From Bacteroidales bacterium (GTDB lineage Bacteria; Bacteroidota; Bacteroidia; Bacteroidales; JAOZVK01): a DNA stretch of 43,129 nt. The stretch is from assembly GCA_029938185.1 (NCBI GenBank), contig JAOZVK010000002.1, positions 1-43,129 of the forward strand. Reading direction: 5' to 3'. Position numbers and translations under genes: made by a program. Numbering within the stretch: position 1 is the stretch's first letter; each line of letters begins with the position of its first letter. This document shows, one piece after another, positions 2,783 to 27,771 of the stretch. The notes beneath the pieces were generated by a model. It was not told the origin of the DNA. It saw nothing but the letters and a program-made list of their open reading frames with translations, and did no database searches.

Positions 2783-3067
2783 ATGGCAAAAAAGAAATAT
2801 AGAGTTCGTATAGTACATACAGGCAAAGAATTTACAATGAGTTTGGATCCAAGTACTCAAGGATTACAGATTGTTAAAGCATTATTGAATAATACAAAAC
2901 TAAACTTGGTTAAAACTGATACAGAGGGTAACCCTATAGAGTATAAACTAAGCTCTAAACAAAAAGGAAAAGATATTAGTACAAATACTCTTAGTGAACT
3001 TGGTATTACTGATGGTGATGTACTTCTTTTGCATCAAAAAATTATTGCGGGATATTTAGTAGTGTAA
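2783..3067 (+). CDS. Ubiquitin-like beta-grasp protein (Ubl) precursor ending ..QKIIAG followed by a 4-aa tail YLVV
   Basis: 94 aa with a beta-grasp-like pattern: YRVRIVHTGKEFTMSL, helix TQGLQIVKALLNN, then LSELGITDGDVLLLHQKIIAG. Gly codon at 3050-3052. It lies between E1 and E2. Two further copies of the same domain occur in the 25811 ORF. The last two codons and the stop (gta gtg taa, 3059-3067) lie inside an R1 repeat copy. Confidence 0.75.
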   Translation: MAKKKYRVRIVHTGKEFTMSLDPSTQGLQIVKALLNNTKLNLVKTDTEGNPIEYKLSSKQKGKDISTNTLSELGITDGDVLLLHQKIIAGYLVV

Positions 3068-3374: not shown

Positions 3375-4046
3375 ATGAGATCTAAAAAATACAAAAATGC
3401 CAGAGATAGCAGATTGGCAAAAGAATATAAAAAAGTTGAAGAACTCTGTAGCAGAAGTTCCAGAATTACTTTTAAAATATTGCATCAAACTAAAAGTAGC
3501 AGACTGCCCGATAAATATGAAATAACTTTTAAATTAAAAAGTATAGTAGGTATTGACAAAAAAACAAAAATGCCTGAATACAGCAATCTGCATAAAATGA
3601 GAATTACATTGCCGCCACGTTGGCCAGCAGCAGATTCTCCTCCCGATTATTATATTAATACAGATATTTGGCACCCAAATATTAAGTCATCTGACCCATA
3701 TAAAGGTCATGTATGTATTAATTCTAAAGCAATATCAGTTTTTGAAGGTTTAGACAATCTTATTCTTAGGGTTGCCGAGCTTTTGCAGTGGAAAAACTAT
3801 TTGGCTGAAGACAAGCCGCCATACCCCGAAGATGTTAATGTGGCAAAGTGGGTACGAGATTTTGCCGAACCAAAAGGTATAGTTAATTTTAAGAAAGGAC
3901 TAGCAATAGATTACTCTGATTTGCTAGAACCTATTGAAGATGAAACTATTTTTGAAGAACCAAATGATGGCGAAGATGATGGTATTGTTATTATTATTGA
4001 AGATGAAAAAATAAAAGATATAGATATCGAAATTGAATTTGATTGA
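3375..4046 (+). CDS. Ubiquitin-conjugating E2 (UBC-fold) enzyme with acidic C-terminal tail
   Basis: Eukaryote-like UBC signature. RLAKEYKKVEEL at the N-terminus, then YEITFKL and MRITLPPRWPAADSPPDYYINTDIWHPNI (HPN at 3672-3680). Catalytic Cys context KGHVCIN (tgt 3714-3716). LILRVAELLQWKNY follows. C-terminal tail is GIVIIIEDEKIKDIDIEIEFD. Confidence 0.85.
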   Translation: MRSKKYKNARDSRLAKEYKKVEELCSRSSRITFKILHQTKSSRLPDKYEITFKLKSIVGIDKKTKMPEYSNLHKMRITLPPRWPAADSPPDYYINTDIWHPNIKSSDPYKGHVCINSKAISVFEGLDNLILRVAELLQWKNYLAEDKPPYPEDVNVAKWVRDFAEPKGIVNFKKGLAIDYSDLLEPIEDETIFEEPNDGEDDGIVIIIEDEKIKDIDIEIEFD

Positions 4047-4094
4047 TATATTTTTAGAAATTGTTTATTATTTAGCATATTTTAAAACTTTTAT

Positions 4095-4820
4095 ATGAAG
4101 ACAAACAATTTTTTTATTTTGATGCAAATAAAATTATTTATAGTATTTATTTTTTTATTTAATAATACTAATGCACAAACTTGGAACTATGTAGGAAAAG
4201 CTGCTGGCAAAGATATTAAATTTACATTAAAAATTATTATAGATGAAAAAAATAAGAATTTTTTTTACATAGGTGGTAGTATAACAAAATTAGATAAAGG
4301 ATACCTCTATATAGCTTATAAAGACATTATAATTCCAAAAAATGTAAAAATTATAACAAAAACTGGTTCTATATATAAACAATGGAGCTATAGAAGTAAT
4401 CCAATACTTCATAATCAAAGACTAAAATTTGAACTGTTACCGGGTTTTAAGGGTGGAAATATTGATTTGAGAATAAGATGTCAATATAATTCAGAATCCA
4501 ATGGTTTTAAATTAAACAGATTATCTAAAAATAATGGCAGACATACTTTTAAAATAAAAAATTTACCTAAAATTTTAACTGCTTATGAAATAAAAGCAGA
4601 ATATGAAAAAAATGGAAAAAGTAGATTAGTAGAAAAAGCTAAGGATATAGAAATGAAATATAGAGACACTATCAATATGCTAAAATCTCGTTTAAATGAA
4701 GTTAGTAAGGATAGTGATATTAATAAGAATACAAAAAATAATAATTTACTGTATGTTATTATTGGGATATTGCTTATATTAATGACTTTAGCTTTATTTA
4801 ATTTATATTTCAAAAAGTAA
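4095..4820 (+). CDS. Signal-peptide ectodomain, short coiled coil and C-terminal TM anchor; JAB-less paralog of the N-terminal part of the 5041 protein
   Basis: AQTWNYVGKAAGKDIKFTLKIIIDEKNKNFFYIGGSITKLDKGYLYIAYKDIIIPKNVKIITK.. aligns almost residue for residue with AQTWNYEGKGAGKDIKFTLKIITDAKKPNFFYIGGGITKLDKGWLHIAIKDIKIPKNVKIITS.. of the next gene. The C-terminal TM segment is LLYVIIGILLILMTLALFNLYF. Confidence 0.75.
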   Translation: MKTNNFFILMQIKLFIVFIFLFNNTNAQTWNYVGKAAGKDIKFTLKIIIDEKNKNFFYIGGSITKLDKGYLYIAYKDIIIPKNVKIITKTGSIYKQWSYRSNPILHNQRLKFELLPGFKGGNIDLRIRCQYNSESNGFKLNRLSKNNGRHTFKIKNLPKILTAYEIKAEYEKNGKSRLVEKAKDIEMKYRDTINMLKSRLNEVSKDSDINKNTKNNNLLYVIIGILLILMTLALFNLYFKK

Positions 4821-5040
4821 GATTTAAACAAATAATTATATAAAAAAATTAGTATAACTGATTAATCACATTAAAAAACGTAAAGAAATATAAAAATTAT
4901 ATATAATTATTTCATTACTAACATGTAATATTGCTTATATTATAAGTTTTTTGATTTTTTAATACAATTAATTATATATCAAACAAAAACAACATTAAAT
5001 TAGGTAAAAAACCATAAATAACATTTTTTTAATAAAATAT

Positions 5041-7644
5041 ATGAATATTATTGAATTAATCCCTAAATATATGAAAACTACATATAAACTCTTTTTTATT
5101 TTGCTAATTTTCTTTTCATTTTTTAATACCACAGTTGCACAAACTTGGAACTACGAAGGAAAAGGTGCAGGTAAGGACATCAAATTTACATTAAAAATTA
5201 TTACAGATGCAAAAAAACCGAATTTTTTTTATATTGGAGGAGGTATAACAAAATTAGATAAAGGATGGCTACATATAGCTATAAAAGATATTAAAATTCC
5301 AAAAAATGTAAAAATTATAACAAGTGGGGCTAAATATAAACAATGGAGTAAAATTAGTAAAACAATACCTCATAAACAAAGACTAAAATTTGAATTATTA
5401 CCAGGTTTTAAGGGTGGAGATATTGATTTAAAAATAAAATGTCAATATAATGAAACTGGAGATTTTAAAGTTAAAAGGTTATCACCAAATGGCATCTACA
5501 CGTTTAAAATAAAAAATTTACCTGAAATTTTAACTGCTGATGAGAAAAAAAAAGAAGCTGAAATAAACGAAACCAAAAGATTATCAGAAAAAGCTAAGAA
5601 TATAGAAACAAAATATAGAGATACAATTAATATAATCAAAGCTGATAATACTAAAATTAAAGAAGATTTAGAAGCTCTAAAAAAACTAATTAAGAATACA
5701 GATGTAAGTGAAAGTGAAAAATTCAACACTTATTATAATGAACTTAAAAAAATAGAAGCCAAAATAGACAAAAATATAGAGAGCTTACAGCCAATTATAA
5801 ATAAGTGTGGAAATGATAAAACAAAAGAGCCAGTTAAAAAAATATATACAGAAATAAATAATTTAAAAACGGATTATAAGGAACTTAAAAAATCAATGGA
5901 AAGCAAAGAACTTTATAAACATACCAATATTGTAAAAAGATGGAAGAACATAAAAGAAAAGAATAAAAAAGAAGCTAATATACTTACAGTAAAATACTTG
6001 CCAATATATACTAAATTAAAATCAAGTTTTGAAACTAATATAACAACATGTAAAGAATTAAAAGAAAAATTTGCAAAAGCACTTATTAGTGATAATGATA
6101 CTGATGTTCAAAGTTTGTATAAACAATATGATAACTTTATAAAAAACTTCAATAAAGATTCAATAAAAAAGAAGAATACTGATAGTGATTATGAAAAAGA
6201 AAAAAAACATCTAATTAAAAAATTAGAAGAAGTAAATAAATTAAAACTTGAGTGTGAACAATATATAAATACATTAGCAAAAGCAGATGGCTTAATAGTA
6301 GAGTTAAAGAGAGAACGAAATAAATTATTGGAAAAAATTCCAGCAAAAAATAATACATGGATATATATTCTAGTAGGAATATTAATTGTTTTGGCAATTT
6401 CGGCTTATCCAATCTTTAATTTTTTAAAAAAGAAAAAACAAAAAAAAGATGCAGACAAAGAAAAAGCAATTATAGATAATATAGATATTGATATTGATTT
6501 TGACGAAAATATGATTGAAAGTGGTTTAATTATATCATTGGAAAATATCAATAAAGGTGAGTATTTGGAAGTTTTGATGTCCGAACAGTGGAATAATTCA
6601 TTTGTAAAAAAATGCTATTTGCATCAAACTGTTATTGAAAAAATATATGAAGTTTGCAGAGAAGAGCAACAGAAAAAAGGAAAAGGAAGTAAAGCACCTG
6701 AAATGGGGGGCTTTTTACTTGGGAAATACTATATGTATGAAAATGATTTATATGATGTTTATATTGATAAATATTTACAACCAAGCGAAGTAGAGCACCA
6801 AGACCTATACCAAATTGAGTTTGGCTCAAAAGCTATGTTAGAATTAGATGATGCATTGCGAAACAATTTAGAAAATGCTCTTGTTGGTTGGTTTCACACT
6901 CACCCCGGTCATGGTCCTTTCCTTTCGATGCCCGACCTGAATATACATAATGGTATGTTTACCAAAAAATGGCAACTTGCTATTGTTACTGACCCATATC
7001 GTGGTCTTGAAACAGGTATATTTACACGTTTTCAAGATGTTACAACAAAAAGTCGAACCAAGATTAATAATAAGGGGCAAAAAAAATGGTTCAATTGGAG
7101 AGATGATTTTATTAAAGCAAAAAAAGTCAATGTAGCAGAAACAACTAAATTACAAACAAATCTACCTCAAACACTTGAAGGGAATTATTATCCAATTGAA
7201 TTAAGTAAATTTTGGATAAATTCTAATGTGATGAAAATATATATTGAATATAATCTAATCTTTGATCTTGATAAAATAAGTATTTCTAAAAAAGAAAATA
7301 ATTCTGAAAGAATAAATTTTGATGGATACATTGTGGGATATTATAAAGAGATTGAATCTCAAAAATATAATCTTTATTTAAATAAAATTTCAAAAGAAAA
7401 ACCATTGAAAAATAATGTTGCATGGATTGGAAGCTCTAAACTTAAAATGAATGTGCTACAAGGAATAATTCAAACATTTCATAAAAATAAATCTATAAAT
7501 AAATGGGATATAGCTGTTGTACTTTCAGATAATAAAGATAAAATAAGCTTTTTCCCAACTAATAAAAATGGAAAATTAAATTTTTCTTCTGATGAAAAGC
7601 ATAGTATGAATTTTTCGGAATTAGATAATTGGACAAGAAAGTAA
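5041..7644 (+). CDS. Membrane-spanning JAB/MPN+ (JAMM) metallopeptidase: signal peptide, ectodomain, long coiled coil, TM, cytoplasmic JAB domain, C-terminal domain
   Basis: JAMM motif GWFHTHPGHGPFLSMPDLN (HxH at 6895-6903) with upstream Glu in APEMGGFLLGKYY. TM segment WIYILVGILIVLAISAYPIF is followed by KKKKQKKD (cytoplasmic side). A more likely start is the internal Met at 5071 (MKTTYKLFFILLIFFSFFNTTVAQ signal peptide). Confidence 0.88.
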   Translation: MNIIELIPKYMKTTYKLFFILLIFFSFFNTTVAQTWNYEGKGAGKDIKFTLKIITDAKKPNFFYIGGGITKLDKGWLHIAIKDIKIPKNVKIITSGAKYKQWSKISKTIPHKQRLKFELLPGFKGGDIDLKIKCQYNETGDFKVKRLSPNGIYTFKIKNLPEILTADEKKKEAEINETKRLSEKAKNIETKYRDTINIIKADNTKIKEDLEALKKLIKNTDVSESEKFNTYYNELKKIEAKIDKNIESLQPIINKCGNDKTKEPVKKIYTEINNLKTDYKELKKSMESKELYKHTNIVKRWKNIKEKNKKEANILTVKYLPIYTKLKSSFETNITTCKELKEKFAKALISDNDTDVQSLYKQYDNFIKNFNKDSIKKKNTDSDYEKEKKHLIKKLEEVNKLKLECEQYINTLAKADGLIVELKRERNKLLEKIPAKNNTWIYILVGILIVLAISAYPIFNFLKKKKQKKDADKEKAIIDNIDIDIDFDENMIESGLIISLENINKGEYLEVLMSEQWNNSFVKKCYLHQTVIEKIYEVCREEQQKKGKGSKAPEMGGFLLGKYYMYENDLYDVYIDKYLQPSEVEHQDLYQIEFGSKAMLELDDALRNNLENALVGWFHTHPGHGPFLSMPDLNIHNGMFTKKWQLAIVTDPYRGLETGIFTRFQDVTTKSRTKINNKGQKKWFNWRDDFIKAKKVNVAETTKLQTNLPQTLEGNYYPIELSKFWINSNVMKIYIEYNLIFDLDKISISKKENNSERINFDGYIVGYYKEIESQKYNLYLNKISKEKPLKNNVAWIGSSKLKMNVLQGIIQTFHKNKSINKWDIAVVLSDNKDKISFFPTNKNGKLNFSSDEKHSMNFSELDNWTRK

Positions 7645-7645
7645 T

Positions 7646-7718
7646 GGCTCTTTGAGCCTTTTAATCTTTACTTATGCATAAATAAATTTTACGAACTCAA
7701 ATAATTAAGCTTAAGACC
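7646..7718. repeat. R1v variant element starting with the hairpin ggctc-ttt-gagcc plus T-run (terminator-like) just after the JAB gene stop
   Basis: The sequence ggctctttgagccttttaatctttacttatgcataaataaattttacgaactcaa..cttaagacc is the reverse complement of the 3267-3327 type. The 5-bp GC stem followed by TTTT sits 2 nt after TAA 7642-7644. Confidence 0.5.
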
Positions 7719-7738: not shown

Positions 7739-10102
7739 ATGAAATCAATTTTGAAGTTAACAAAAATAATTTTTATCATTTTTTTTATTTTCCCAATAAA
7801 TGTTTTTACACAGAATCTTGAAATAACAGATATTCAATTTCGTAGAGATTCCTTATTGGTTGATGTTTTTTTTAGCGTCCGAGATGGAGGTGGCTTAATT
7901 AAACTAAAAGATGTATATGATGATTTGAGAGTTGTTGAAAAGAAATTTGATAAAAGCTTAGAAATGAACAAACTTCATTATCAAAATCTTAAAGGTGGAG
8001 TTTCGGGCAATAGACCGGGAGGAAACAATGGTGCAAAGGTTAAAGTTGAACAAATGACCATATCGGTAGCTCTTGATTATAGCGGAAGTATGAGTTATCA
8101 TAACAAATTGGAACAAGCCAAAAAAGCTGTAAAAAGTGTTTTCGATGTTGGGCTTCCTGATGGTAGTATTTGGTTTACAACATTTCATCATGATATATCA
8201 GCAAAAAAAATACTAACACCATCAAACTATGATGAGATAGTTGGTAGTTTAGTACCACACCCAAAAAACAAAAGTAGCTTGTTTCATACCAATTTACGAA
8301 CAGTTATTGTTAATAAAATAATTGAACTCAAAGAATCTAAAAGAAAGGGAAAAAAAGTATTAATAATATTAACTGATGGTAAACATGATTTAAAAAATCA
8401 CCCTGACTTGGAAAGTATTTCTCCAGACGAAAAGCAAGTTTTGGACTGGGCAAGCAAAGCCGATATTGATATATATACCATTGGTATTGGCGATAATTCT
8501 AAAGGAGAGTCAAGCATAAACAAAAAATTTCTTGAAGCAATACCGGCAGCAACAAAGAGCAAGTTTGATGGTTATCTTTTTGCAAAACTTCCAAAAGACT
8601 TAGGAAAACATATAAAGAAAACAATAGAAACAGCCAGAGCTGACTATATGATAACACTAAGGTCTAATTTTGATATTTATGAAGGAGTGGACAGAACTGT
8701 TACACTAAGAATAAACAAAGGTTCGCTTGATGTTGAAGATGATATTCAATATATAGGGGGGAGTGGAATTGATAAAATAAAAATGTTTGAAATGGATGAG
8801 AAGGGTAATATTGTACATGTAAAGCCAAATGTATTTGCATCTATTTTAACAGGAATAACTGCTTTGTTTTTATTATTTGTTGTTTCTGTGATTTTGTATC
8901 CGGCTACGATGAAAAAAATATTTGATAAGAAATTTACAAAAAAATATATACCCGAAGATGATGATACTACAGAAGATTGCCCTGTATGTGGCAACCAAAT
9001 TGTTAAGGGCGAGCTGATTGTAACAAAATGTGAACACAAACAACATAAAACATGCTGGGAAGGCGAGCCAGACCCTAATAAATGTATTATGAATTGCGAT
9101 GCTAAATTTGATAAAGGTTTTAAAGTGAGTGACTTTTTTGACCAAAAAGGAGAAACAGTTTCACTAAACTGGATGTTTTTTGGTGCTCTTGCCTTGTTTG
9201 TTGCATATATAATTATAGCTTTAAGTGGCGATAGTGGCTCATATTCATCTTTTATGCAATCGTTGTTAGCAACAGTAACAGGCGAAGATACTAAAGTTAT
9301 AAAACGTATATATTTGTCGGATTTTACACGTAATACCTTAAATGGAATTTTTGTAAGTGCCTCATTAGGCTTTGCTTTTTCGTATCTCGAAGAAAGACGT
9401 AAAAGAATGGATGCCAAAACTTTTATTAAAATTTTTGTAAGAACATTTATTTTAGGTTTAATTGGTTTTATTGTCTTTTTCATTGGTTCTTCAATCTCAA
9501 AAGCGATAAATATGGATTATATTTCGGGCTTAATTATGTGGTTGTTGTTTGGCTTAATTATAGGTGCATCTTTATCAATAGGTACATCAATTAGTGTGAA
9601 AAATGGAATAATAGGTGGACTTTTGGCTTCAATTATAGCATACCAACCATTTTATTTTATAATTAAATATGTGGGAATGCCAGATATATCAAAAGTTATA
9701 AGTTTTATTATTTATGGAGCCATACTTGGTTTATTGATTTCGGTTGTAAACAAAAAACTTGAAAAATATGTTCTGAAAATAACACAAGTACCAGCCGGCA
9801 GCGAAAAATGGCAAGGAGTTGATGTGAAAATTCATAAATGGATGAATACGAGTCAAGTAGTTACTATTGGTAAATCAGTTGATAATCATTTTACTGTTCA
9901 TTGGGAAGACCAAATTCCTGAAAGTTCTATTAGTCTTGAAAAAACAGTAGATGATAAAATATTTTTAAATGTACTTGATACAGTTGAAGAAAAACCTGTA
10001 CAACTAAACAACAGAATTCTTGTAGAAGGTACTAAAAGACAAATTTCTAACAATGATATAATCCAAATAGGAGAAACTAAATTTCAGTATATGGAAGAAT
10101 AA
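7739..10102 (+). CDS. Signal peptide, vWA domain, TM, RING-H2-like zinc finger, ~6 TM helices and a C-terminal FHA-like domain; candidate membrane E3 ligase
   Basis: vWA MIDAS ISVALDYSGSMS (gat at 8075) and VLIILTDGKHD. RING-like CPVCGNQIVKGELIVTKCEHKQHKTCWEGEPDPNKCIMNCD (8978-9097) has spacing C-x2-C-x13-C-x-H-x2-H-x2-C-x9-C-x3-C. Several hydrophobic helices lie between ~9170 and 9750. C-terminal VVTIGKSVDNHFTVHW...NNRILVEGTKRQISNNDIIQIGETKFQY is FHA-like but lacks a clear SR.H motif. Confidence 0.75.
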   Translation: MKSILKLTKIIFIIFFIFPINVFTQNLEITDIQFRRDSLLVDVFFSVRDGGGLIKLKDVYDDLRVVEKKFDKSLEMNKLHYQNLKGGVSGNRPGGNNGAKVKVEQMTISVALDYSGSMSYHNKLEQAKKAVKSVFDVGLPDGSIWFTTFHHDISAKKILTPSNYDEIVGSLVPHPKNKSSLFHTNLRTVIVNKIIELKESKRKGKKVLIILTDGKHDLKNHPDLESISPDEKQVLDWASKADIDIYTIGIGDNSKGESSINKKFLEAIPAATKSKFDGYLFAKLPKDLGKHIKKTIETARADYMITLRSNFDIYEGVDRTVTLRINKGSLDVEDDIQYIGGSGIDKIKMFEMDEKGNIVHVKPNVFASILTGITALFLLFVVSVILYPATMKKIFDKKFTKKYIPEDDDTTEDCPVCGNQIVKGELIVTKCEHKQHKTCWEGEPDPNKCIMNCDAKFDKGFKVSDFFDQKGETVSLNWMFFGALALFVAYIIIALSGDSGSYSSFMQSLLATVTGEDTKVIKRIYLSDFTRNTLNGIFVSASLGFAFSYLEERRKRMDAKTFIKIFVRTFILGLIGFIVFFIGSSISKAINMDYISGLIMWLLFGLIIGASLSIGTSISVKNGIIGGLLASIIAYQPFYFIIKYVGMPDISKVISFIIYGAILGLLISVVNKKLEKYVLKITQVPAGSEKWQGVDVKIHKWMNTSQVVTIGKSVDNHFTVHWEDQIPESSISLEKTVDDKIFLNVLDTVEEKPVQLNNRILVEGTKRQISNNDIIQIGETKFQYMEE

Positions 10103-11381: not shown

Positions 11382-14300
11382 ATGGCTGAAATAATATCAT
11401 TAATTGCAAATTCAGGAATTCAATTTATTGAAAAAAGAGTTAATTTAGACGAAAACTCAGATGCCTACACACAAAGAAGCCGTTTTGCCGAAATTGTTAC
11501 AAAAGATGTTGTAGGTGAAAAAGAATACGAATTAGTATTTCCTTATTTGTATAAAAAAAGAGAAAAATATATTTTAAAGGATAGTATAAATATTGAAGCA
11601 TTTAATAAAAAAAATGGTAAAATAGAAGAAGAATATATTAAAGAAAATTATGTTAAGTATGTAGATGAAAGAAAAGGCGATAAGGTTTATTCTGTTCAGG
11701 CACGCGATAGCATTGAAACATTTCAGGGAGCTTGGCTGCCCTTACCATATTTTAGAAAAGCAGGTAATAAAAAGCTACAACCCGGACCATTTTCATGGGC
11801 AAGAATGTGGTTTAGTAAAATTCCTTCAAAAGAAAAAAAAATAGACAATGCAACGCATCATGTCATATTAGCTTTTGATACGCGTACTGTGGAGTCAAAT
11901 GAAGAAAAATATATTGTACCCGAAGAACTTGATGCAGAACAAGGTTCTGTTTTTAAATGTTCGGATGACGATGATGCCACTTTTAATTTTTGTGGTTTAG
12001 AGTGGGTGCAAGAATGGCTTGAAAATGAATTTGAAAAAGGTAAAAAAAGAAATTATAAATATCAGTTTTATCATATAGCAATATATTTTAATTTAATACA
12101 ATTATTAGATAAAATAAATGTTTTTCCTGAAGTTTCATTACACTCAACTCAACAGTTCGAAAATCCATTTTCTAATGAAGTTGATCTAATCCTTGATATT
12201 GGAAACTCAAGAACTTGTGGTTTGCTTTATGAAACATCAAAAGTTGGAAAACCTTTTAGCTTTACTGATGCAGTTCCTCTAAACATAAGAGATTTGACCT
12301 ATCCAAGCAAAAGATACTCCGATCCGTTTTCTATGATTTTGGCTTTTGTAAAAGCCGAATTTGGTAGCGATATTATTATACCCGAAAATATTGATGCTTT
12401 TAAATGGCCAAGCTTATTAAGGATTGGAAGTGAAGCAAAAAGATTGATAGTTATGAATAATAAGCTTTCATCTAATTTTACAATGTCGAGTCCTAAAAGA
12501 TATTTATGGGACAATAGAAAAACTATTTTCCCTTGGGAGTTTATCGCTGATAAAAATGATGATATAAAAAATATTGAAGTTAACGGAGCTATTGTTAGAG
12601 GGCTAAATGAATTGTTTACATCGGAGGGTGTTTATTTAAAAAAAGCACAGGAAATTGCAGAAAATAAAGGTGATGAATTTGTTCAGGATTTTCCTCACAC
12701 ACCAAATTATTCAAGAAAATCATTGATGACTTTCGTTTTTGTTGAAATATTTTTACACGCTTTAACATCTGTGAATAGCTATGAATTTCGTAAAAAACAT
12801 GGTAATGAACGTATTCCTCGAAAGCTTAAACGAATAGTTTTAACATGTCCTACTGCTATGATTCAGAAAGAGCGTTTTTTTCTGAGAGATCTTGCTTTAG
12901 ATGCTCTTAAAACAATAGGAGAACTATTTGATAAATCATTTGTTGATATAAAGGACATTGAAATAATACCAGATCCTCACAATGTTAAAAAACTTGCACA
13001 AGAAGATATTGAAGAAGATAGCAAAAAAATGATAAAAGATTGGGCATATGATGAAGCTACATGTAGCCAATTAACATTTTTATATGGTGAAATTGCACAC
13101 AGATACAGAAAAAAGACTTCTTTATTTTTTAAAATAAATGGAAAAATAAGAAAAAATTCAATTTATGAAAATAAACCTGCTGTAACTGTTGCAAGTGTTG
13201 ATATTGGTGGTGGTACAACCGACCTTATGATAGCAACTTATCAAACATCACCTGAGGATGATTCTGTAATAATACCTGACCCTGAGTTTTGGGAAGGATT
13301 TAATATTGCAGGAGATGATATTAGTCGCAGAATTATTGAAACTTTAATATTACCAGTAATTGCACAAGATGCCAAAAACAAGGAATGTTCTGATATTGTA
13401 GATGTTATGTCTTTTTTATTTGGACACGATATGCAAAGACAAGAAGCGGAAGATAGACATATGAGAAAACAATTTGCACAACAAATTGCAATACCTATGT
13501 CATACCAAATGATACAACATGCAATAGATAATAAGGATAATGAAACAAGAGGTTTCAAAGACTTTTTTGTTGAATACCCAACTCCAAGTGAAGCATTAAT
13601 AGATTATATAAATTCAAATTTTGCAAAAAGAGCTACTAAAAACTTTAATATTAAAAATATTAAATGGGAGTTGAATACAATTCATATAAATGAAGTTGTA
13701 AAAAAAGTTGTTGAAAAAATGCTAAAGAAGCTCTGCATTGTGATTGCTCAATTTAATTGTGATTACTGTGTTTTGGCAGGACGACCAACAACAATGCCTG
13801 TTATTAGAGATTTGTTTTTAAAATATTTGCCAACATATTCCGATAGAATCATACAACTTGGAAATTACCGTATTGGTAGATGGTATCCTTTTGCCGATGC
13901 ATCTGGTAGAATAAAAGACCCAAAAACTTGCGTTTCGGTGGGTGCAACAATTTCACTTATGAGTAAACTTGGACAGCTTGATGGATTTAGGTTTGAAACT
14001 AAATATCTTAAAGATAAACAAAAATCCACAGCCGAGTATATAGGAAAATATGAAAAGGACACAGGCAAAATCTCAAAAACATATTTTACGCCCAAAGATA
14101 ATTTTAGTACTATAGTTTTTAATTCTCCAATGTTGGTCGGTATGAAACAACTAAAAGATGAAGATTGGATTTCCACTCCTATATTTAAAGTAGATTTTGC
14201 GGATTCAAATAGAGCTGCAAAATTAAGTAGTAGAATGCCTTTGAAAATTGATTTAACACGAGACTATGCTACAAATAAAGAAGAGTTTGAAAGTATTGAA

Positions 14301-14426
14301 TCAATATTAGATAATGATGGAGACGAGGTGATGCCGGGCGACATAGCAATAAATTTACAAAGTTTACCAAACGAACATGGATACTGGATGGATACAGGAA
14401 TATTTAATTTACCAATTTTTTCATAA
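11382..14426 (+). CDS. SrfB-like large actin/HSP70-fold ATPase
   Basis: 1014 aa. Phosphate-1 motif VDLILDIGNSRTCGLL (~12181-12220). Phosphate-2 motif VASVDIGGGTTDLMIA (~13198-13225). Adenosine-type motif YCVLAGRPTTMPVIRDLF (~13769-13800). Size and motifs fit my recollection of the SrfB virulence-factor family; this needs HMM confirmation. Confidence 0.7.
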   Translation: MAEIISLIANSGIQFIEKRVNLDENSDAYTQRSRFAEIVTKDVVGEKEYELVFPYLYKKREKYILKDSINIEAFNKKNGKIEEEYIKENYVKYVDERKGDKVYSVQARDSIETFQGAWLPLPYFRKAGNKKLQPGPFSWARMWFSKIPSKEKKIDNATHHVILAFDTRTVESNEEKYIVPEELDAEQGSVFKCSDDDDATFNFCGLEWVQEWLENEFEKGKKRNYKYQFYHIAIYFNLIQLLDKINVFPEVSLHSTQQFENPFSNEVDLILDIGNSRTCGLLYETSKVGKPFSFTDAVPLNIRDLTYPSKRYSDPFSMILAFVKAEFGSDIIIPENIDAFKWPSLLRIGSEAKRLIVMNNKLSSNFTMSSPKRYLWDNRKTIFPWEFIADKNDDIKNIEVNGAIVRGLNELFTSEGVYLKKAQEIAENKGDEFVQDFPHTPNYSRKSLMTFVFVEIFLHALTSVNSYEFRKKHGNERIPRKLKRIVLTCPTAMIQKERFFLRDLALDALKTIGELFDKSFVDIKDIEIIPDPHNVKKLAQEDIEEDSKKMIKDWAYDEATCSQLTFLYGEIAHRYRKKTSLFFKINGKIRKNSIYENKPAVTVASVDIGGGTTDLMIATYQTSPEDDSVIIPDPEFWEGFNIAGDDISRRIIETLILPVIAQDAKNKECSDIVDVMSFLFGHDMQRQEAEDRHMRKQFAQQIAIPMSYQMIQHAIDNKDNETRGFKDFFVEYPTPSEALIDYINSNFAKRATKNFNIKNIKWELNTIHINEVVKKVVEKMLKKLCIVIAQFNCDYCVLAGRPTTMPVIRDLFLKYLPTYSDRIIQLGNYRIGRWYPFADASGRIKDPKTCVSVGATISLMSKLGQLDGFRFETKYLKDKQKSTAEYIGKYEKDTGKISKTYFTPKDNFSTIVFNSPMLVGMKQLKDEDWISTPIFKVDFADSNRAAKLSSRMPLKIDLTRDYATNKEEFESIESILDNDGDEVMPGDIAINLQSLPNEHGYWMDTGIFNLPIFS

Positions 14427-14449
14427 ATAAAATTAAGTAAAGATAGATT

Positions 14450-14549
14450 TAAGGTCTTCGACTTATTTAATGTTACTTACGCATTCTGTTAATACTTTAA
14501 TATTGTGTTTTAACAAAAAGCAAATGTCGGAAAACTTTTGTAAGGCTAC
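14450..14549 (-). repeat. R1 intergenic repeat element, full copy, reverse orientation
   Basis: The sequence taaggtcttcgacttatttaatgttacttacgcattc...caaatgtcggaaaacttttgtaaggctac begins 24 nt after the stop of the SrfB-like gene. Confidence 0.8.
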
Positions 14550-14617
14550 TTAAAACTTTTGTATTTAGACTTATATTTTTCAAATTTTTACGAATTAATA
14601 CTTAATACTCAATAAGC

Positions 14618-14625
14618 TATTTTTG
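14618..14625 (+). promoter_or_regulatory. Candidate Bacteroidota -7 promoter box (TAnnTTTG)
   Basis: tatttttg matches TAnnTTTG ~40 nt upstream of ATG 14665. No convincing -33 TTTG was seen. Confidence 0.3.
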
Positions 14626-14664
14626 TTTTTCACTAATTGACAACTGAATATAAAAAATTTAATT

Positions 14665-15642
14665 ATGGCAGGTATAAAAAAAACAATAACTAATAACAAT
14701 AATGATGAAATAGGCAAAAAAAATTCAATAAAGAAAACTGAATATCTAAGTAAATCACAAGATGCAAATGAAAAAAGTTTAGATAACAATAATACATCGC
14801 AAAAAGTTTTTAGCAAAACATCATATAAAGAAGCAGCAAAACAGTTACTTGATATTTTTGGACACGAAGTTATAAATAGTTTAAAAAACAATCAGTTTTT
14901 AAAAATACCATATACCTATAGCGATATTACTGATGAAGAGTGGCTACTAAAAGCAATACAAACTATACTTAACGAAAATGATGTAATACTAATACTACAA
15001 AGCATTAATAATAAATATAATAATTTGATAAACAAAGTAGAAATACTTCAAACTGAAATAGAAAAAATAAAAAAAAATGTAAAAAACAAACAAAGTGAAA
15101 ACCAAAAACTTGAAAAAGAGAGTGATAAATATTTTATAGAAAACAAAAAACTAAAAGAAGAAATATCAAAGTCAGTAAATCTGTCATTGGTATTCGAGTC
15201 TGTTTTTAGTCAGGATAATCAAAAAGGCTTATTAAGATTAGCAAAAGAAGCTGTTGATGAAGATTCAGACGAAGAAACAGTAAAGTTTTTACTTGCTTTT
15301 CTAAATGGCTGGACGCAAATTATTCCTACATTAGAAATAGAAATTAATAATGAAGAAGAGAAAGTTGAATTATATGACCAAGTGTTAAGAGAATTACTAT
15401 TGTTAATAAAAGATTTGCAAATACCTCAACGAAGAGCCTTTTTAGATGCTTTAGCAAGGTATATAAATAAAAATCTTAATGAATTTGAATTTATTTCGCC
15501 TGAAGAAACTATACAAATAGATATTGACTTGCATAATGCTAAAGGAATTGGAGGTAGCAAAATAAAACAAGGCTTATCTTATGCTGTTGTTAGAAAAGAA
15601 AATAGGCAAACATATAAATATGCAGATATTGAAGTATATTAA
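14665..15642 (+). CDS. Coiled-coil protein with a GrpE-like C-terminal pattern (tentative nucleotide-exchange-factor-like partner)
   Basis: 325 aa with a low-complexity N-terminus and a coiled coil (NLINKVEILQTEIEKIKKNVKNKQSENQKLEKE..). The C-terminus FEFISPEETIQIDIDLHNAKGIGGSKIKQGLSYAVVRKENRQTYKYADIEV resembles the GrpE core pattern (V-E-x-I .. D-P-x-x-H-x-A .. G-Y .. R-x-A-x-V-x-V). This is pattern recognition only. Confidence 0.4.
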   Translation: MAGIKKTITNNNNDEIGKKNSIKKTEYLSKSQDANEKSLDNNNTSQKVFSKTSYKEAAKQLLDIFGHEVINSLKNNQFLKIPYTYSDITDEEWLLKAIQTILNENDVILILQSINNKYNNLINKVEILQTEIEKIKKNVKNKQSENQKLEKESDKYFIENKKLKEEISKSVNLSLVFESVFSQDNQKGLLRLAKEAVDEDSDEETVKFLLAFLNGWTQIIPTLEIEINNEEEKVELYDQVLRELLLLIKDLQIPQRRAFLDALARYINKNLNEFEFISPEETIQIDIDLHNAKGIGGSKIKQGLSYAVVRKENRQTYKYADIEVY

Positions 15643-15714
15643 CTTGAATGTAAGTATTTATTTGGTCTACTACCTTAAAATCTGTTTTTGTACAATTGAT
15701 AAAATTAATAAATT

Positions 15715-18543
15715 ATGATTACCGAAAAAATAAATAAACTCACAAACACCTGTGATTCAATAATAAATACTATCCCAAAAACTACAGACTGGGTTGGAAA
15801 ATACAAAATTGTGCCTCAAGAAAATAAAAAAGCTCTTAATTATCAACTTAATAAATACAGAAGAGATACTCAAAGATATAAAGATGCACTAACTAAAAGA
15901 CCATCAATAGCTATTTTTGGACAAAGTCAGGTTGGTAAATCATATTTGGTATCAAATCTTGCAAAAAGAAACGAAGACTTCTCTCTTATGGTAGAAGTTC
16001 CCGGAGAAAACAAAAAAATTGATTTCATTGAAGAAATGAATCCTCCTGGAGGAGGGAAAGAAGCTACTGGTTTGGTTTCGCGTTTTACTGTACAAGATAA
16101 TTATTCGAGTGGACAAAAACCATATTTGTTGAAACTGTTTTCGCAATGCGATATTGTGAAAATTATTACTAATGGTTATTTATCAGATATTAAGCCATAT
16201 GTGTATGAGGTGAATAAAGTAGAAGTTCAAAATATTATAAATTTAGTTAAAGCAAAAAAAAGCAGTTCCATACAAGCAGGTTTTACTGAGGATGATGTTT
16301 TTGAACTAAAAGAATATTTAAATCATAATTTTAGAAGTCATAGCATAATTAAAGACTTCAATAATTTAAATTTTTGGGATGATATTGCTGATATTATTCC
16401 TTATTTATCATATAATATAAGATACGAAATATTAGAATTGCTTTGGGGTAAACAAGATTTTTTTACCGAACTGTTTAAAAATTGCTCATCGGGACTCAAA
16501 GAAATTGATTTTGCAAAAGAAGTAAGATGTGGCTTACAAGCATTATCTCCAAATACAGATACACTGCTTGATGTGCAGCGTCTTAGAGAGATGTTCGGAG
16601 ACGGTACTGTCAAACAAGATGTTGATTTATACAGAGACACAACAAAAATTGCCAGATTACCACGAAGTGTAGTAAGTGCAATTACCGCTGAGGTAATCTT
16701 ACCATTACCTAAAGACATTGTAAACACAGCTGAAAGAGCATTTCTAAAAGATGCTGATATTTTGGATTTTCCTGGTGCACGTTCTCGTAACATGATACCC
16801 GAGCAAACTTTTATTGAAAATGATAATGTTGATAAATTAGAAATTTTTTTAAGAGGTAAAGTAGCATTTTTATTTGATAGATATAATTATAACTTTGAAA
16901 TAAGTACCTTAATGTTTTGTATGCATAATGACCAACCAGAAGTGCAGGATATTCCTCGATTATTGTATGAATGGATTAGCACAAATCATGGGGCTTCGCC
17001 TCAAGAAAGAGAAACCAGAGAAAATTTACTATCACAAATAGTACCTAATTCTGGAATTAAAAGAATAATACCACTTCTTGTTGTTCAAACAAAATTTAAT
17101 ATTGACTTAAAGGGAAATCCGGCTACTGAAACTATTGGTAAATCAGCATCTCATGATTGGAAGTGGAATGCAAGATTAGATGCAAACTTTCATAAGTTTA
17201 TGATAAAACCTGTTGTTGATAAATGGCCAGAATCTTGGAATATTAGCGATGGTAGTTTTAAAAATATTTTTTTATTACGTGACCCAAAATGGTCAACAGA
17301 TGTGTTTGAAGGATATGATAGTACTAATAAAAATGAAACAGGTCTAAAAAGTCCTTACGACAAAAAATTGGAAGATATGAAAACATCATTCCTATCTCAC
17401 AAATATACAAACTTACATTTCAGATCGCCTATGGATGCATGGGTAGAATCATGTACGCCAAATAAAAGTGGTATTGACTATATTGTAAAATATCTATCTC
17501 CTACTTGTAATCCAATAATTCGATTAGAACGGCTAAAAACTCTAATTCACGAACAAAAAACAAATGTTTTACAAGCTTTTGAAAACTATGTTGATTCTGG
17601 TGATCTTGCCTCAAAACTAAAAAAAGCTAAAGTAAATGGAGCAAAAGTATTTATGTCAATGATGAAATGGGTAAAAAAGACAAATGGATTTGGTGCATTT
17701 CTTGACGAATTGACTATTAATGAAGACGAAGCATGGAAAGTTTATTGGAATCTTAAAAGCTCGCCTCCTAAAACTGAAAACAATGGACAAGATGCTAATA
17801 ATGAGCAAAGTGTTGCAACATTCAAACAATATCTTGAAGAAGCAGGAATACCTTTTGATATTTCAAAAGATATTCGCTGGCATATTGAGCAATTAAAAGA
17901 ATTTTTTGGTTTTGATGATGATGAGAGTATTTATGAAGTATTAAAAGAAGCTGATATTGACTTAGAAAAAATACTTAAAGGTGGTGAAAGTGTGGATTAT
18001 ATTAAATCAGAAGCAGAAATTTATTCTGAAATGCTAATCGAAAATTGGTTCTCTAAAGTTATTAATCTTAAAAACAATACTAATTTATTAAACAAAGGCT
18101 TATCAAAAAACATTATTTCTTTGGTTTGTAATACTCTGGATAAAAGTAAAGAACGAATAGGTTTAAAACGCTTATTAACAGATAGGATTCATGACGAAGT
18201 AGAATATTTTTCAGTCAGTAAAAATTATAATATTGTGGCTCATATTTCAGCTACAACTATCAATGATTATATAAACTCAATAGGTTGGAAGTTTGTAGAT
18301 GAAACAATTACAGAATATCCAAAAGTTAAAAACGTACCAGTTTATTCAAAACAAGGAGTATTAACACCTAAAAAAGAAGATTTAAGAATGGATATTGATT
18401 ATCCAGGTATGTTATTGTTCAATGAATGGAATGCAGGAATAAGAAATTCATTTACAGCTAATGTTTTATTTGAAGAAAAAGCCGGAAACACCGAAGATGC
18501 TCTTGTAAAACAAAAACTAAATGATATTCTTAAAAAAATGTAG
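15715..18543 (+). CDS. SrfC-like large P-loop NTPase (probable GTPase)
   Basis: 942 aa. Walker A IAIFGQSQVGKSYLVSNL (~15915-15941). Walker B / G3-like DADILDFPGARS. LLVVQTKFN is a possible degenerate G4. Size, the N-terminal P-loop and adjacency to a SrfB-like gene fit my recollection of the SrfC family. Confidence 0.65.
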   Translation: MITEKINKLTNTCDSIINTIPKTTDWVGKYKIVPQENKKALNYQLNKYRRDTQRYKDALTKRPSIAIFGQSQVGKSYLVSNLAKRNEDFSLMVEVPGENKKIDFIEEMNPPGGGKEATGLVSRFTVQDNYSSGQKPYLLKLFSQCDIVKIITNGYLSDIKPYVYEVNKVEVQNIINLVKAKKSSSIQAGFTEDDVFELKEYLNHNFRSHSIIKDFNNLNFWDDIADIIPYLSYNIRYEILELLWGKQDFFTELFKNCSSGLKEIDFAKEVRCGLQALSPNTDTLLDVQRLREMFGDGTVKQDVDLYRDTTKIARLPRSVVSAITAEVILPLPKDIVNTAERAFLKDADILDFPGARSRNMIPEQTFIENDNVDKLEIFLRGKVAFLFDRYNYNFEISTLMFCMHNDQPEVQDIPRLLYEWISTNHGASPQERETRENLLSQIVPNSGIKRIIPLLVVQTKFNIDLKGNPATETIGKSASHDWKWNARLDANFHKFMIKPVVDKWPESWNISDGSFKNIFLLRDPKWSTDVFEGYDSTNKNETGLKSPYDKKLEDMKTSFLSHKYTNLHFRSPMDAWVESCTPNKSGIDYIVKYLSPTCNPIIRLERLKTLIHEQKTNVLQAFENYVDSGDLASKLKKAKVNGAKVFMSMMKWVKKTNGFGAFLDELTINEDEAWKVYWNLKSSPPKTENNGQDANNEQSVATFKQYLEEAGIPFDISKDIRWHIEQLKEFFGFDDDESIYEVLKEADIDLEKILKGGESVDYIKSEAEIYSEMLIENWFSKVINLKNNTNLLNKGLSKNIISLVCNTLDKSKERIGLKRLLTDRIHDEVEYFSVSKNYNIVAHISATTINDYINSIGWKFVDETITEYPKVKNVPVYSKQGVLTPKKEDLRMDIDYPGMLLFNEWNAGIRNSFTANVLFEEKAGNTEDALVKQKLNDILKKM

Positions 18544-21164: not shown

Positions 21165-23002
21165 TGAAAAATTTTGTAAAAGAAACAACAACACGAAACC
21201 TTAGACCTTTTAAAACTAATAATATACAGATAATGTATAGGTATAGTATATTTAAAAGTTTATTTAAAAAAAACAAAGCATATACTATTTTTGCTGAACC
21301 TGATTTTTCTTTTATTAATAAAAAAATAATTAAATGGTACAGTGAATTTAATTCAGAATCGGTTTCATATAATGATGTGAACGATGATGAAAAACTACGT
21401 ATTAATAAATTACTAAAAAACCAAGTTAAGTTGCTATATAACTATGCTTTATATATTCATGAAAATAGCACCGATAATGATAAGATATTTGAAACTCTTG
21501 ATAAAGCAATTGAAGTACCCGACTTATCTGATATTAATATATTAAAAGACAATAACAGAATTAAGATTGTATTGACAAGATGGGGAGCTATAAGTGATGA
21601 ATATAATGCTAAAAAAGGAATAATAAAAAATTTAGTACCTGTAAAAATTAAAGATATTACTTTTAATTTGAAATATAATGACGGTACTCCAGCATTAGAT
21701 AAAGAACTTTTTTTTAGATTGAATGAGCTTGTAACAAATTATAAGACAGATAACAATGGTAAAATTGTTTTATTTGATATACCATTTTGGCAAATTATAG
21801 AAGTTTGGCATAATAATGAAAATTTTGAAAAAGTTTTTAAAAACAAATATAAATGTAGTAGTAAAGATCAGTACACAATTATTATTCCTAAGGAAAAAAT
21901 ATTTTTTGATATGCGATTTATTATCCATAACGAAAGTAGTATTCCTGAAAAAAACAGAGAATTTAGTATTACAATAGACAATTCATCAAATAAATACAAG
22001 ACAAATAGCAATGGTGAATTTATTTTAAATAAAATTGAGGAAAAAAAGAAAGTATATTGTTCTGTAGATGATAATGGTAATATTCAAAAATTTGGTTTTC
22101 TTAATGATGGAAGGAGCTATTATATATTAAAACTAAAAACTAAAAAAGTTAAAGTAGAACCTATTAGTAAAGAAAAGCCCATTGAAGAGAAAGTAAAAAA
22201 AGAAGAAAAACCTATAAAAGAAACAGTTACTATTGTAACTCAACCAACTTATTCAACTGATACTGATAGGAAATTAAGAGTTATATATAATAACAATTCA
22301 GTTGTTAAAGGTGCTAAAGTTTTTTTTAGTAATTCATCTGATTATTTAAAAACGGATATTAATGGTGAACTACAGTTTCAATCTAATGAAAATAGTCTTA
22401 TTAATATAAAAATAAAAAAGAACTATAGAGTAACAAAAATTGATTTATTTATTACGAATCAAAAAGAGTATGTTATAAAAATAAATTCAAAAAAAAGAAT
22501 ACTACTATACTTGATACTATCATTAATACCACTATTGGCAATATTGTTTTATTTTATTTTATTTTCAAATGCAAAAGTTGAAAAGTATACTCATAAAGTA
22601 TTTATATCCGGCTGTATTGTTAGTGATAATTATGTAAGAGAAATATTTAGTGAAATCTTTGTTGATGATGAGTATAGTATAACAGTTAAAAAAGGAGTGT
22701 ATAATATTAATGATATTTTACCTGAAATTAAAAAAATCACTCTTGATGGTTTAGTAATTGGTATTAAAACAAGATTGATTTTATATTCAGATAAAAATGG
22801 ACATGGAAATATTTTAGTTGATACAGTTGGACCTTTAATTATCAATTGTAAAAGATGGAGGTATAATAAATTTTTTAATATCTCAAATTCAAAAAAATAT
22901 AAAAAAGAATTACAAAATATATTTCCATTGAAAAAAAGAATGTGGAGTACTGATACTTTAATGAAATATAATAATGGGTCGATAAAAGTTTTATATGAAT
23001 AA
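21164..23002 (+). CDS. N-module, beta-sandwich repeats, TM and a C-terminal domain shared with the 30384 protein (beta/gamma-crystallin-like motif)
   Basis: N-module motifs IFAEPDFSFINKKIIKWYSEF and IVLTRWGAISDE. TM segment ILLYLILSLIPLLAILFYFILF. The C-terminus LDGLVIGIKTRLILYSDKNGHGNILVDTVGPLIIN..NNGSIKVLYE aligns with the 30384 C-terminus. The ATG at 21164 overlaps the upstream TGA (tgatg); the track start at 21161 is a TTG. Confidence 0.75.
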   Translation: MKNFVKETTTRNLRPFKTNNIQIMYRYSIFKSLFKKNKAYTIFAEPDFSFINKKIIKWYSEFNSESVSYNDVNDDEKLRINKLLKNQVKLLYNYALYIHENSTDNDKIFETLDKAIEVPDLSDINILKDNNRIKIVLTRWGAISDEYNAKKGIIKNLVPVKIKDITFNLKYNDGTPALDKELFFRLNELVTNYKTDNNGKIVLFDIPFWQIIEVWHNNENFEKVFKNKYKCSSKDQYTIIIPKEKIFFDMRFIIHNESSIPEKNREFSITIDNSSNKYKTNSNGEFILNKIEEKKKVYCSVDDNGNIQKFGFLNDGRSYYILKLKTKKVKVEPISKEKPIEEKVKKEEKPIKETVTIVTQPTYSTDTDRKLRVIYNNNSVVKGAKVFFSNSSDYLKTDINGELQFQSNENSLINIKIKKNYRVTKIDLFITNQKEYVIKINSKKRILLYLILSLIPLLAILFYFILFSNAKVEKYTHKVFISGCIVSDNYVREIFSEIFVDDEYSITVKKGVYNINDILPEIKKITLDGLVIGIKTRLILYSDKNGHGNILVDTVGPLIINCKRWRYNKFFNISNSKKYKKELQNIFPLKKRMWSTDTLMKYNNGSIKVLYE

Positions 23003-23927: not shown

Positions 23928-23939
23928 AAATATTAAAAA

Positions 23940-24923: not shown

Positions 24924-24944
24924 ATTAAAAAACCAAACTTGTAT

Positions 24945-25793: not shown

Positions 25794-25810
25794 TTTTATT
25801 AAGATATATT

Positions 25811-26884: not shown

Positions 26885-26899
26885 GTAAAAAAATAACAA

Positions 26900-27601: not shown

Positions 27602-27771
27602 AGGCTATATCAATACAATTTTCTTAAATTAAGTCTACAATTGGCTGTCTTCATGTCTGTAGACTGAAAGCTGTTGTTTATCAGACTTATTAAAAGTAAT
27701 AATTTAGCAATTTTGTTTGTTGCTTCGCTATGCTAAGTATATACTATAAACAATGTTCATTTTTTTTAACA

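Follow-up and report, generated by a model that had tools for sequence, protein, structure and literature searches.

Prokaryotic operons combining E1, E2, RING, JAB and ubiquitin-like protein (Ubl) genes were reportedly predicted by comparative genomics by Burroughs, Iyer and Aravind in 2011 (Mol Biosyst 7:2261), in work said to be the source of the Pfam families Prok-RING, Prok-JAB and Prok-E2. To our knowledge, the bacterial Ubl systems studied so far (Cap2/Cap3 of the cyclic oligonucleotide-based antiphage signalling system, CBASS; Bil; and Bub) are all cytoplasmic, and no member of the family described here has been tested by experiment. Bil types I and II (BilC), Bub type I (BubCD) and type II CBASS (Cap2/Cap3) encode a JAMM peptidase together with an E1, an E2 and a Ubl (PMC11601596, PMC11601603), and the JAB peptidases of Bil, Bub and CBASS carry out both pre-protein processing and deconjugation (PMC11601596). 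The Bil peptidase is a separate protein in a system with no predicted E3, the Bub peptidase is fused to E1, and no membrane span is mentioned for them (PMC11601603, PMC11601596). Here we describe a related locus on a 43,129-nucleotide stretch (the window) of contig JAOZVK010000002.1 from a Bacteroidales bacterium, whose source sample is a hydrothermal-vent metagenome. It encodes the same JAMM, E1, E2 and Ubl combination. Unlike Bil, Bub and CBASS, it adds a membrane RING protein with a predicted periplasmic vWA domain and a JAB peptidase that is itself predicted to span the membrane. This peptidase, p5041 (5041–7644, + strand, 867 aa), is preceded by p4095 (4095–4820, + strand, 241 aa), a JAB-less paralogue of its extracytoplasmic part; both open reading frames (ORFs) are present. 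Tentatively, and with doubts that slightly outweigh our confidence, we read p5041 as a membrane-bound, Rpn11/Rpn8-like deconjugase and processing peptidase under periplasmic control and p4095 as a co-assembling, peptidase-less modulator.

The catalytic set of p5041 is complete. The cytoplasmic MPN+/JAMM domain (aa ~506–690, nt 6556–7110) scores 34.7 bits against Pfam JAB (cut-off 22.5 bits) and contains Glu554, in EMGGF, followed by the H-x-H-x7-S-x2-D zinc motif H619THPGHGPFLSMPD632 (nt 6895–6936). An AlphaFold2 (AF2) model of the cytoplasmic half reached a pTM of 0.74, with a low-confidence linker at residues 231–249. Foldseek comparisons of this half returned Rpn11 of the Rpn8–Rpn11 dimer as the best match (E = 2.4e-7), along with CSN5, BRCC36 and the Caldiarchaeum Rpn11 homologue. 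The C-terminal region (aa ~700–867, nt 7138–7641), which a preliminary description had listed as a separate domain of ~220 aa, spans ~170 aa and aligns with the JAB domain that precedes it. As a single sequence it aligned over its full length with the family JAB profile in hhalign (96.5%), and a profile built from the C-terminal domain matched the JAB profile at 99.3% (E = 9.6e-21). The order of secondary-structure elements in the AF2 model is that of an MPN domain, and the catalytic Glu, HxH, Ser and Asp columns are all lost; a PDB sequence search with the C-terminal-domain profile gave noise only. From these alignments and the loss of the catalytic residues, we assign the last ~170 residues as a catalytically dead internal MPN copy (MPN−) and not a new domain, which makes the cytoplasmic half an MPN+/MPN− tandem.

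This arrangement recalls the eukaryotic Rpn11–Rpn8, CSN5–CSN6 and BRCC36–Abraxas pairs, in which an active MPN+ subunit is likewise combined with an inactive MPN− one. It differs from them in that both MPN domains lie in one chain, stem from an internal duplication within the family and are tethered by a transmembrane (TM) segment to a periplasmic module. The single-chain tandem thus parallels the Rpn11–Rpn8 pair of the proteasome lid and bears on the origin of paired MPN modules. A fused MPN− domain occurs in 7 loci and a separate ~200-aa JAB directly after the membrane-spanning JAB (TM-JAB) in 24, and the two never co-occur. The small separate JABs 3′ of the TM-JAB have intact catalytic motifs. 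Such mutual exclusivity would fit a TM-JAB that works as an MPN pair, although it is suggestive only. As a separate observation, one locus (L004:2103–9394) encodes two tandem membrane-spanning JABs (868 and 946 aa), a 374-aa JAB with a degenerate motif (HTKP in place of HTHP) and a 231-aa JAB, all before the vWA protein.

The exported half of p5041 begins with a hydrophobic N-terminus that leads to ...TVA|QTW. The true start is probably Met11 (nt 5071; MKTTYKLFF...), 10 codons after the annotated start, since this column is nearly invariant in the family alignment and also aligns with the start of p4095. An AF2 prediction made from a four-sequence alignment gave, at pLDDT 81, ten strands followed by a long helix. 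The strands form an Ig-like (immunoglobulin-like) beta-sandwich of ~130 aa (aa 34–165, nt 5140–5535), smaller than the ~150-aa ectodomain first proposed. Fold searches against PDB and BFVD retrieved generic beta-sandwiches only (gamma-adaptin ear, MALT1 Ig3 and DsbD-alpha; TM-score 0.2–0.55), and these searches gave no functional lead and no likeness to phage receptor-binding proteins. The ectodomain is homologous in orthologues and evolves fast: its identity to the closest orthologues is 22–29%, versus 43–54% for the cytoplasmic half. The stalk that follows (aa 166–436, nt 5536–6348, its onset placed by the helix start in the AF2 model) is helical and has a weak ATG17-like helical match in Pfam. 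It had been described as a ~270-aa coiled coil, yet it is broken by Pro/Gly at aa 251–264, 321 and 417, and these interruptions suggest that it may be a folded bundle rather than a single 40-nm rod. A TM helix (aa 437–463, nt 6349–6429) and a KKKKQKK stop-transfer sequence complete the passage through the membrane. The signal peptide, single TM helix and cytoplasmic JAMM domain of the preliminary description are thereby retained, and its sizes and types for the three remaining domains are replaced by those given here.

We predict p5041 to be a type I inner-membrane protein with the JAB domain in the cytoplasm and the Ig-like domain and stalk in the periplasm, in agreement with the side first proposed for the JAB domain. 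The prediction draws on the A|Q signal peptide, the positive-inside bias of the family and the composition of the partner enzymes. The signal peptides of p4095, p5041, the vWA-RING protein and the 10202 protein all end directly before Gln, and this +1 Gln is nearly invariant across 60 family ectodomains; the A|Q sites agree with the Q-rule for Bacteroidetes signal peptidase I substrates (PMC5837995). Lys/Arg residues are more numerous after the TM helix than before it in 73 of 78 TM-JABs (mean +3.9). E1, Ubl and E2 have no hydrophobic segments, and so are read as having no export signal. An inverted topology, with the JAB domains in the periplasm and the Ig-like domain in the cytoplasm, would be compatible with the Lys/Arg count around the TM helix of p5041 alone, which is near balance (6 before, 7 after). 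The N-terminal signal peptide with its A|Q cleavage site, the bias in the relatives and the absence of hydrophobic segments from all presumed substrates and partner enzymes nevertheless make that orientation extremely improbable.

As had been noted at the outset, p4095 consists of the same ectodomain, a short helix (first described as a coiled coil) and a C-terminal TM helix, with no cytoplasmic part. BLASTP aligned p4095 aa 23–206 with p5041 aa 29–209 (126/184 identical, 68%; E = 9e-76), and a second piece covered the two TM helices (9/21 identical, E = 0.003). At the DNA level, 4145–4678 (copy A, + strand) and 5107–5633 (copy B, the parent, + strand) share 81% identity over 540 nt. Retained in p4095 are the signal peptide (aa 1–27, nt 4095–4175; TNA|QTW), the Ig-like domain (aa 28–160, nt 4176–4574, then a short helix), the first ~45 stalk residues and the homologous TM helix (aa ~217–237, nt 4743–4805). 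The protein stops after FKK where p5041 reads on with KKKKQKK. p4095 is a recent local copy, and its sequence resembles that of the parent with part of the stalk deleted from within and with termination at the cytoplasmic face. Rates of synonymous (dS) and nonsynonymous (dN) substitution were estimated by the Nei–Gojobori method. Within the Ig-like domain of the pair, dS is 0.44 and dN 0.14, and the ratio of 0.32 indicates purifying selection on this domain since the duplication. This supports the initial view of p4095 as a truncated paralogue and shows it to be a genuine and selected one. No family model in Pfam, NCBIfam or PADLOC matched p4095, and NCBIfam likewise lacks models for p5041 and the RING protein.

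The duplication is real and not an assembly artefact, as an identical 241-aa p4095 in the same E2–4095–JAB context is found on independent assemblies (Logan SRR21545382 and GCA_029935775.1) and a 19.8-kb contig, seen in two runs, covers the region with zero differences. In run X3, one contig joins window position 4004 to 5024 and omits the entire 4095 gene. This join has only 22 letters on its shorter side, and its left edge falls within the E2 gene. Probably AT-rich sequence was joined here by chance; the contig may otherwise represent a strain variant that lacks the 4095 gene. Scans for promoters, terminators and the Bacteroidetes −7 motif around the pair gave counts at chance level, and the terminator scan found none between 4095 and 5041. 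The sole terminator-like hairpin near the pair (7646–7658), GGCTCTTTGAGCC with a run of T behind it, comes straight after the stop codon of the JAB gene and before the vWA-RING gene.

An exhaustive HMMER search with the cytoplasmic half of p5041 gave 2398 representative clusters at E ≤ 1e-3, a number that falls to 366 at E ≤ 1e-10. Among the best 150 clusters, 111 combine an exported region of at least 80 aa with a TM helix and JAB and 9 more are N-terminally anchored, for a total of 120 membrane-anchored clusters. A scan of one genome per species yielded 367 confirmed matches, and the best 80 of these are nearly all from Bacteroidota (Saprospiraceae, Lewinellaceae, Chitinophagales, metagenome-assembled genomes of Bacteroidia, and cultured Lewinella, Neolewinella and Portibacter). 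The full order E1–Ubl–E2–TM-JAB–vWA/RING is present in ~60 of the 84 fetched loci, and most others are broken by a contig end. The vWA-RING gene lies immediately 3′ of the TM-JAB gene in most loci, and stop and start codons within the cassette frequently overlap (e.g. L080). With the window added to these 84 loci, 78 of 113 JAB ORFs are membrane-anchored, and each of the 78 TM-JABs has an intact JAMM motif. By these family-wide counts, a TM-JAB is standard in operons of this type, and the window is unexceptional in having one. The statement that JABs of bacterial Ubl operons are soluble consequently applies to the characterised Bil and Bub systems as described and does not extend to this family, in which the membrane JAB is ordinary and it is the neighbouring gene that is lineage-specific. 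Two homologue searches by word index gave no usable result: with the ectodomain as query (5137–5535) the search gave zero matches and missed even the window's own two proteins, so this null is not evidence of absent relatives, and with full-length p5041 the query matched only itself because coiled-coil words swamped the candidates, which makes the search uninformative.

JAB-less genes occupy the slot between E2 and TM-JAB throughout much of the family. Where both flanking genes are available (65 loci), 1–3 genes lie between them in ~47, and 2 more loci show a gap of that size with no ORF called. The encoded proteins are 450–700 aa long, and 52 of 63 end in a C-terminal TM helix with a short basic tail (median 11 aa, 32% Lys/Arg; zero lysine in 12 of the 52). 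By BLASTP, 42 of 63 resemble some TM-JAB ectodomain; at the profile level the JAB-less family and the TM-JAB ectodomains match over 365 columns (hhalign 99.8%, E = 2.9e-28), with the window's own pair heading both alignments. Pfam scans of 41 JAB-less proteins and 60 ectodomains found almost nothing beyond a few PKD and YfiO matches. For 49 of 57 JAB-less proteins the nearest relative is a JAB-less protein of another locus, which points to an old paralogous lineage. The proteins closest to their own TM-JAB are the window copy (68%) and one in Lewinella sp. W8 (52%). In the five loci closest to the window (L001, L002, L003, L005 and L006) the gap between E2 and TM-JAB is 0–222 nt with no JAB-less gene, and the fetched flanks of these loci contain no ectodomain copy elsewhere. 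The pairing, whose conservation in related loci was a check suggested at the outset, thus recurs in about three quarters of the family and is missing from all five of the closest orthologous loci. The latter absence, together with the closest match being its own TM-JAB, identifies the window copy as a lineage-specific duplication. By these sequence relationships, the window lineage re-created by partial duplication a component lacking in its near relatives.

Combined, these data suggest a model in which p5041 would be the processing and deconjugating peptidase of the operon's Ubl. Its cleavage site would lie behind ...IIAG, so that it would take off the YLVV tail, free conjugates or do both, and it would act at the membrane beside E1, E2 and the membrane-embedded vWA-RING ligase. 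This choice of substrate is supported by the conserved Ubl C-terminus, often with a short tail, and by a second Ubl gene of the window (25811), which adjoins a second JAB and has a further domain fused behind the same IIAG. The periplasmic module may set the assembly state or activity of p5041 and so couple cytoplasmic conjugation to the cell envelope. We propose that p4095 co-assembles with p5041 through the shared Ig-like, stalk and TM parts, as a peptidase-less subunit that would tune the JAB activity or the ligand binding of the complex, and that it fills the role held in most related operons by the older JAB-less paralogues. BlaR1/MecR1-type sensor-proteases similarly join an extracytoplasmic sensor through the membrane to a cytoplasmic zinc metalloprotease. 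The working logic proposed for p5041 is the same, and the parallel is one of analogy only, as the BlaR1/MecR1 peptidase is of the M56 and not the JAMM type and the topology and substrates differ.

Several observations weigh against this model. With all five closest orthologous loci lacking a JAB-less gene, the gene must be dispensable for the core system. Within the copy itself, the duplicated start of the stalk has a dN/dS of 0.75 (Nei–Gojobori), which is near neutral. The stalks measure ~45 and 270 aa, which disfavours a simple in-register pairing, since an extended long stalk would hold its Ig-like domain farther from the membrane than the short one does. The modelled ectodomain fold is generic and offers no clue to a ligand. 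A further point concerns the substrate. Across 66 loci the Ubl C-terminus conserves (V/I)AG or PG, and about a quarter end exactly at the Gly, the rest having tails of ~1–9 aa. The Ubls of the closest orthologues stop at AG, in contrast to ...IIAG-YLVV in the window, and tail removal therefore cannot be the conserved role of the JAB. Deconjugation would be the likelier common function of the TM-JABs.

A bolder version of the model joins the RING ligase, with its periplasmic vWA domain, and the membrane deconjugase in one envelope-spanning complex whose balance would be set from outside the cytoplasm. The JAB-less paralogues would then be decoy or co-receptor subunits, useful enough to be re-created after loss by partial gene duplication, as in the window and in Lewinella sp. 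W8. We consider this version rather doubtful. In either form the interest lies in a full E1–E2–RING–JAB set with membrane anchors and periplasmic domains on both ligase and peptidase, which, if the model is true, would be the first bacterial ubiquitin-like modification wired to the cell envelope. The recurring peptidase-less paralogue also offers a simple genetic handle, and culturable hosts exist (Neolewinella xylanilytica DSM 29526, Portibacter lacus and Lewinella spp.).

p4095 might instead be a young, functionless duplication remnant, a harmless exported fragment heading to loss, in which case the locus would be merely another member of an unstudied operon family. The absence of a counterpart from all five closest loci, the resemblance of p4095 to its parent with an internal stalk deletion and a stop straight after the TM helix, the near-neutral rate of the retained stalk start and the lack of a Pfam, NCBIfam or PADLOC match are all what a remnant would show. 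We nonetheless regard it as unlikely: the ORF is intact and keeps its signal peptide, +1 Gln, TM helix and basic stop-transfer, the substitution rates in the Ig-like domain reflect divergence under purifying selection, about three quarters of related operons have a gene of this kind in the slot, and such a gene has been independently re-created at least once more (L063). The JAB-less proteins could also be functional and non-regulatory, either as periplasmic components of an envelope complex, with a scaffold or adhesin role, or as targets that the RING protein modifies, and the TM-JAB clears, through their cytoplasmic tails. Tails that are short and rich in Lys/Arg would suit such targets, the arrangement is like that of a RING ligase in the membrane whose targets are type I membrane proteins, and envelope-related neighbours recur (PorP/SprF in 24 loci, CHU_C in 20, M23 in 24 and TssK/TssN-like in 8–11). 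Basic tails are, however, predicted by the positive-inside rule alone, and the lysine-free tails in 12 of 52 proteins make a universal Lys-tail substrate role improbable. Shared assembly or ligand binding would account more readily for the full-length homology between the JAB-less proteins and the TM-JAB ectodomain, and we give the non-regulatory reading only a small share of our confidence.

The whole module could, finally, be an anti-phage or conflict system, in which the ectodomains sense an invader or envelope damage and the paralogues widen or buffer recognition. The faster divergence of the ectodomains relative to the cytoplasmic half would fit, as would the repeated duplication of ectodomain genes (1–3 copies per locus), the window paralogues with swapped effector-like C-termini (S8 protease, transglutaminase-like and papain-like) and the nSTAND NTPases that adjoin the cassette in 7 loci. 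A published view takes E1/E2/JAB operons for mobile conflict systems (PMC3417536); of the characterised systems, Bil acts against phages and type II CBASS has a related E2–E1 conjugation module (PMC11601603). On the other side, PADLOC gave only domain-level E1 and JAB matches, Pfam scans of the window showed neither phage nor mobile-element genes, cultured isolates of Lewinella and Portibacter have the cassette on the chromosome, and there is no known defence phenotype. A conflict role is quite unlikely on this balance, and the reading of p5041 as a periplasmically controlled deconjugase with p4095 as its co-assembling modulator remains the one we prefer.

The remaining genes of the cassette correspond to the operon set reportedly predicted by Burroughs and colleagues, namely a ThiF-type E1, a UBC-type E2 with HPN..C, a Gly-ended beta-grasp Ubl, a JAB and a Prok-RING_1-type finger on a membrane protein. 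The five genes are co-directional in the window, where every long ORF is on the + strand (27% G+C), and the C-terminal Gly of the Ubl is conserved as AG/PG in the 66 loci. The first gene encodes the E1-like adenylating enzyme of the ThiF family (1548–2765, + strand; Pfam ThiF E = 7.7e-51), which has no TM or signal segment. It is followed by the 94-aa beta-grasp Ubl (2783–3067, + strand), which ends ...IIAG and a 4-aa YLVV tail and has weak YukD and ubiquitin matches in Pfam. The UBC-like E2 (3375–4046, + strand) has the HPN...C motif, an acidic C-terminal strand (DIDIEIEFD) and a Pfam UQ_con match slightly under the cut-off (E = 1.5e-5); WHPNIKSSDPYKGHVC can be read in its translation. Downstream of p5041, the presumed membrane E3 (7739–10102, + strand) comprises a signal peptide, a vWA domain (Pfam VWA), a TM segment, a Prok-RING finger (a weak Prok-RING_1 match of 2.9e-3, under the Pfam cut-off) and a multi-TM C-terminal part. 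Besides its signal peptide this protein has six clear hydrophobic segments, a count by which its C-terminal domain would lie outside. A seventh, weak one (aa ~535–552) may correct this predicted location. In the literature searched, in which Burroughs 2011 and 2012 were not covered, neither a bacterial Ubl operon with a membrane-spanning JAMM peptidase nor a fused MPN− domain nor peptidase-less paralogues are described, and Iyer 2006 does not describe this operon type.

Membership in the characterised systems was considered and rejected. The locus was not assigned to Bil because a RING protein is present, the gene order differs and p5041 has no BilC match; PADLOC BilC matches only the second JAB of the window, and weakly (4.6e-4). 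Type II CBASS and Bub were set aside because E1 and E2 are separate genes and no CD-NTase or DUF6527 is found among the Pfam matches of 29 window proteins. PADLOC reported no system-level match, and its 'E1-E2' matches span the adenylation domain only.

Beyond the vWA-RING gene, the Ubl cassette of the window is followed by three genes (11382–18543) encoding an SrfB homologue (E = 1e-213), an unassigned 325-aa protein and an SrfC/Virul_Fac homologue (E = 2e-139). SrfB is also found 3′ of the cassette in four close relatives (L001, L002, L005 and L006), two of which, L005 and L006, likewise show the 325-aa protein and SrfC. No link between SrfABC and ubiquitin-like systems was found in the literature searched. 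In loci L010–L081 the cassette is flanked by genes for PorP/SprF (24 loci), CHU_C-domain proteins (20), M23 peptidases (24), TssK-like (11) and TssN-like (8) proteins, nSTAND NTPases (7) and ion channels (8). A link to the type VI secretion system through the TssN match was treated as weak, since the match may reflect the ubiquitin-like cytoplasmic domain that TssN has in common with EccD (PMC10781749).

A second Ubl/JAB cluster of five genes lies at 23181–27553 in the window. The first (23181) encodes a protein whose N-terminal region is beta-grasp-like and which also has a TM segment, and the second (23940; ...FSAC) a coiled-coil lipoprotein. Next come a soluble JAB of 284 aa, closely paralogous to that of p5041 (24939), an adjoining tandem di-Ubl (25811) and a TerB-domain protein (26900). 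The second of the two beta-grasp repeats in the di-Ubl ends in IIAG and is fused to a domain of ~170 aa. An alternating acidic/hydrophobic strand motif (DIDIEIEFD, IDIDIDFDE, DIDIDIEL and EIDIEV) recurs in both clusters, at the E2 C-terminus (4017–4043), in the p5041 linker (IDIDIDFDE, aa 481–489, nt 6481–6507, + strand; kept in orthologues), in the second JAB (~25194–25220) and in the TerB protein (26900–27553). It is present in 11 of 78 TM-JAB linkers, compared with 1.5 expected from shuffles, and the statistics are weak. E2 C-termini of the family generally have x-I-x-I-x strands, which are basic in most clades (GIKIKRK) and acidic in that of the window. The acidic/hydrophobic strand could be a Ubl-binding strand akin to a SUMO-interacting motif. 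Around the second cluster, four proteins (18615–21164, 21161–23002, 27730–29286 and 29433–30365) have in common an N-terminal domain of ~150 aa with FAEP...W...ILTQWG motifs. Their C-terminal parts differ (an S8 subtilase, a CarboxypepD_reg-like region, a transglutaminase-like domain and one with no Pfam match), and the 18615 and 29433 proteins also share a C-terminal domain of ~110 aa. The four look like a polymorphic effector set.

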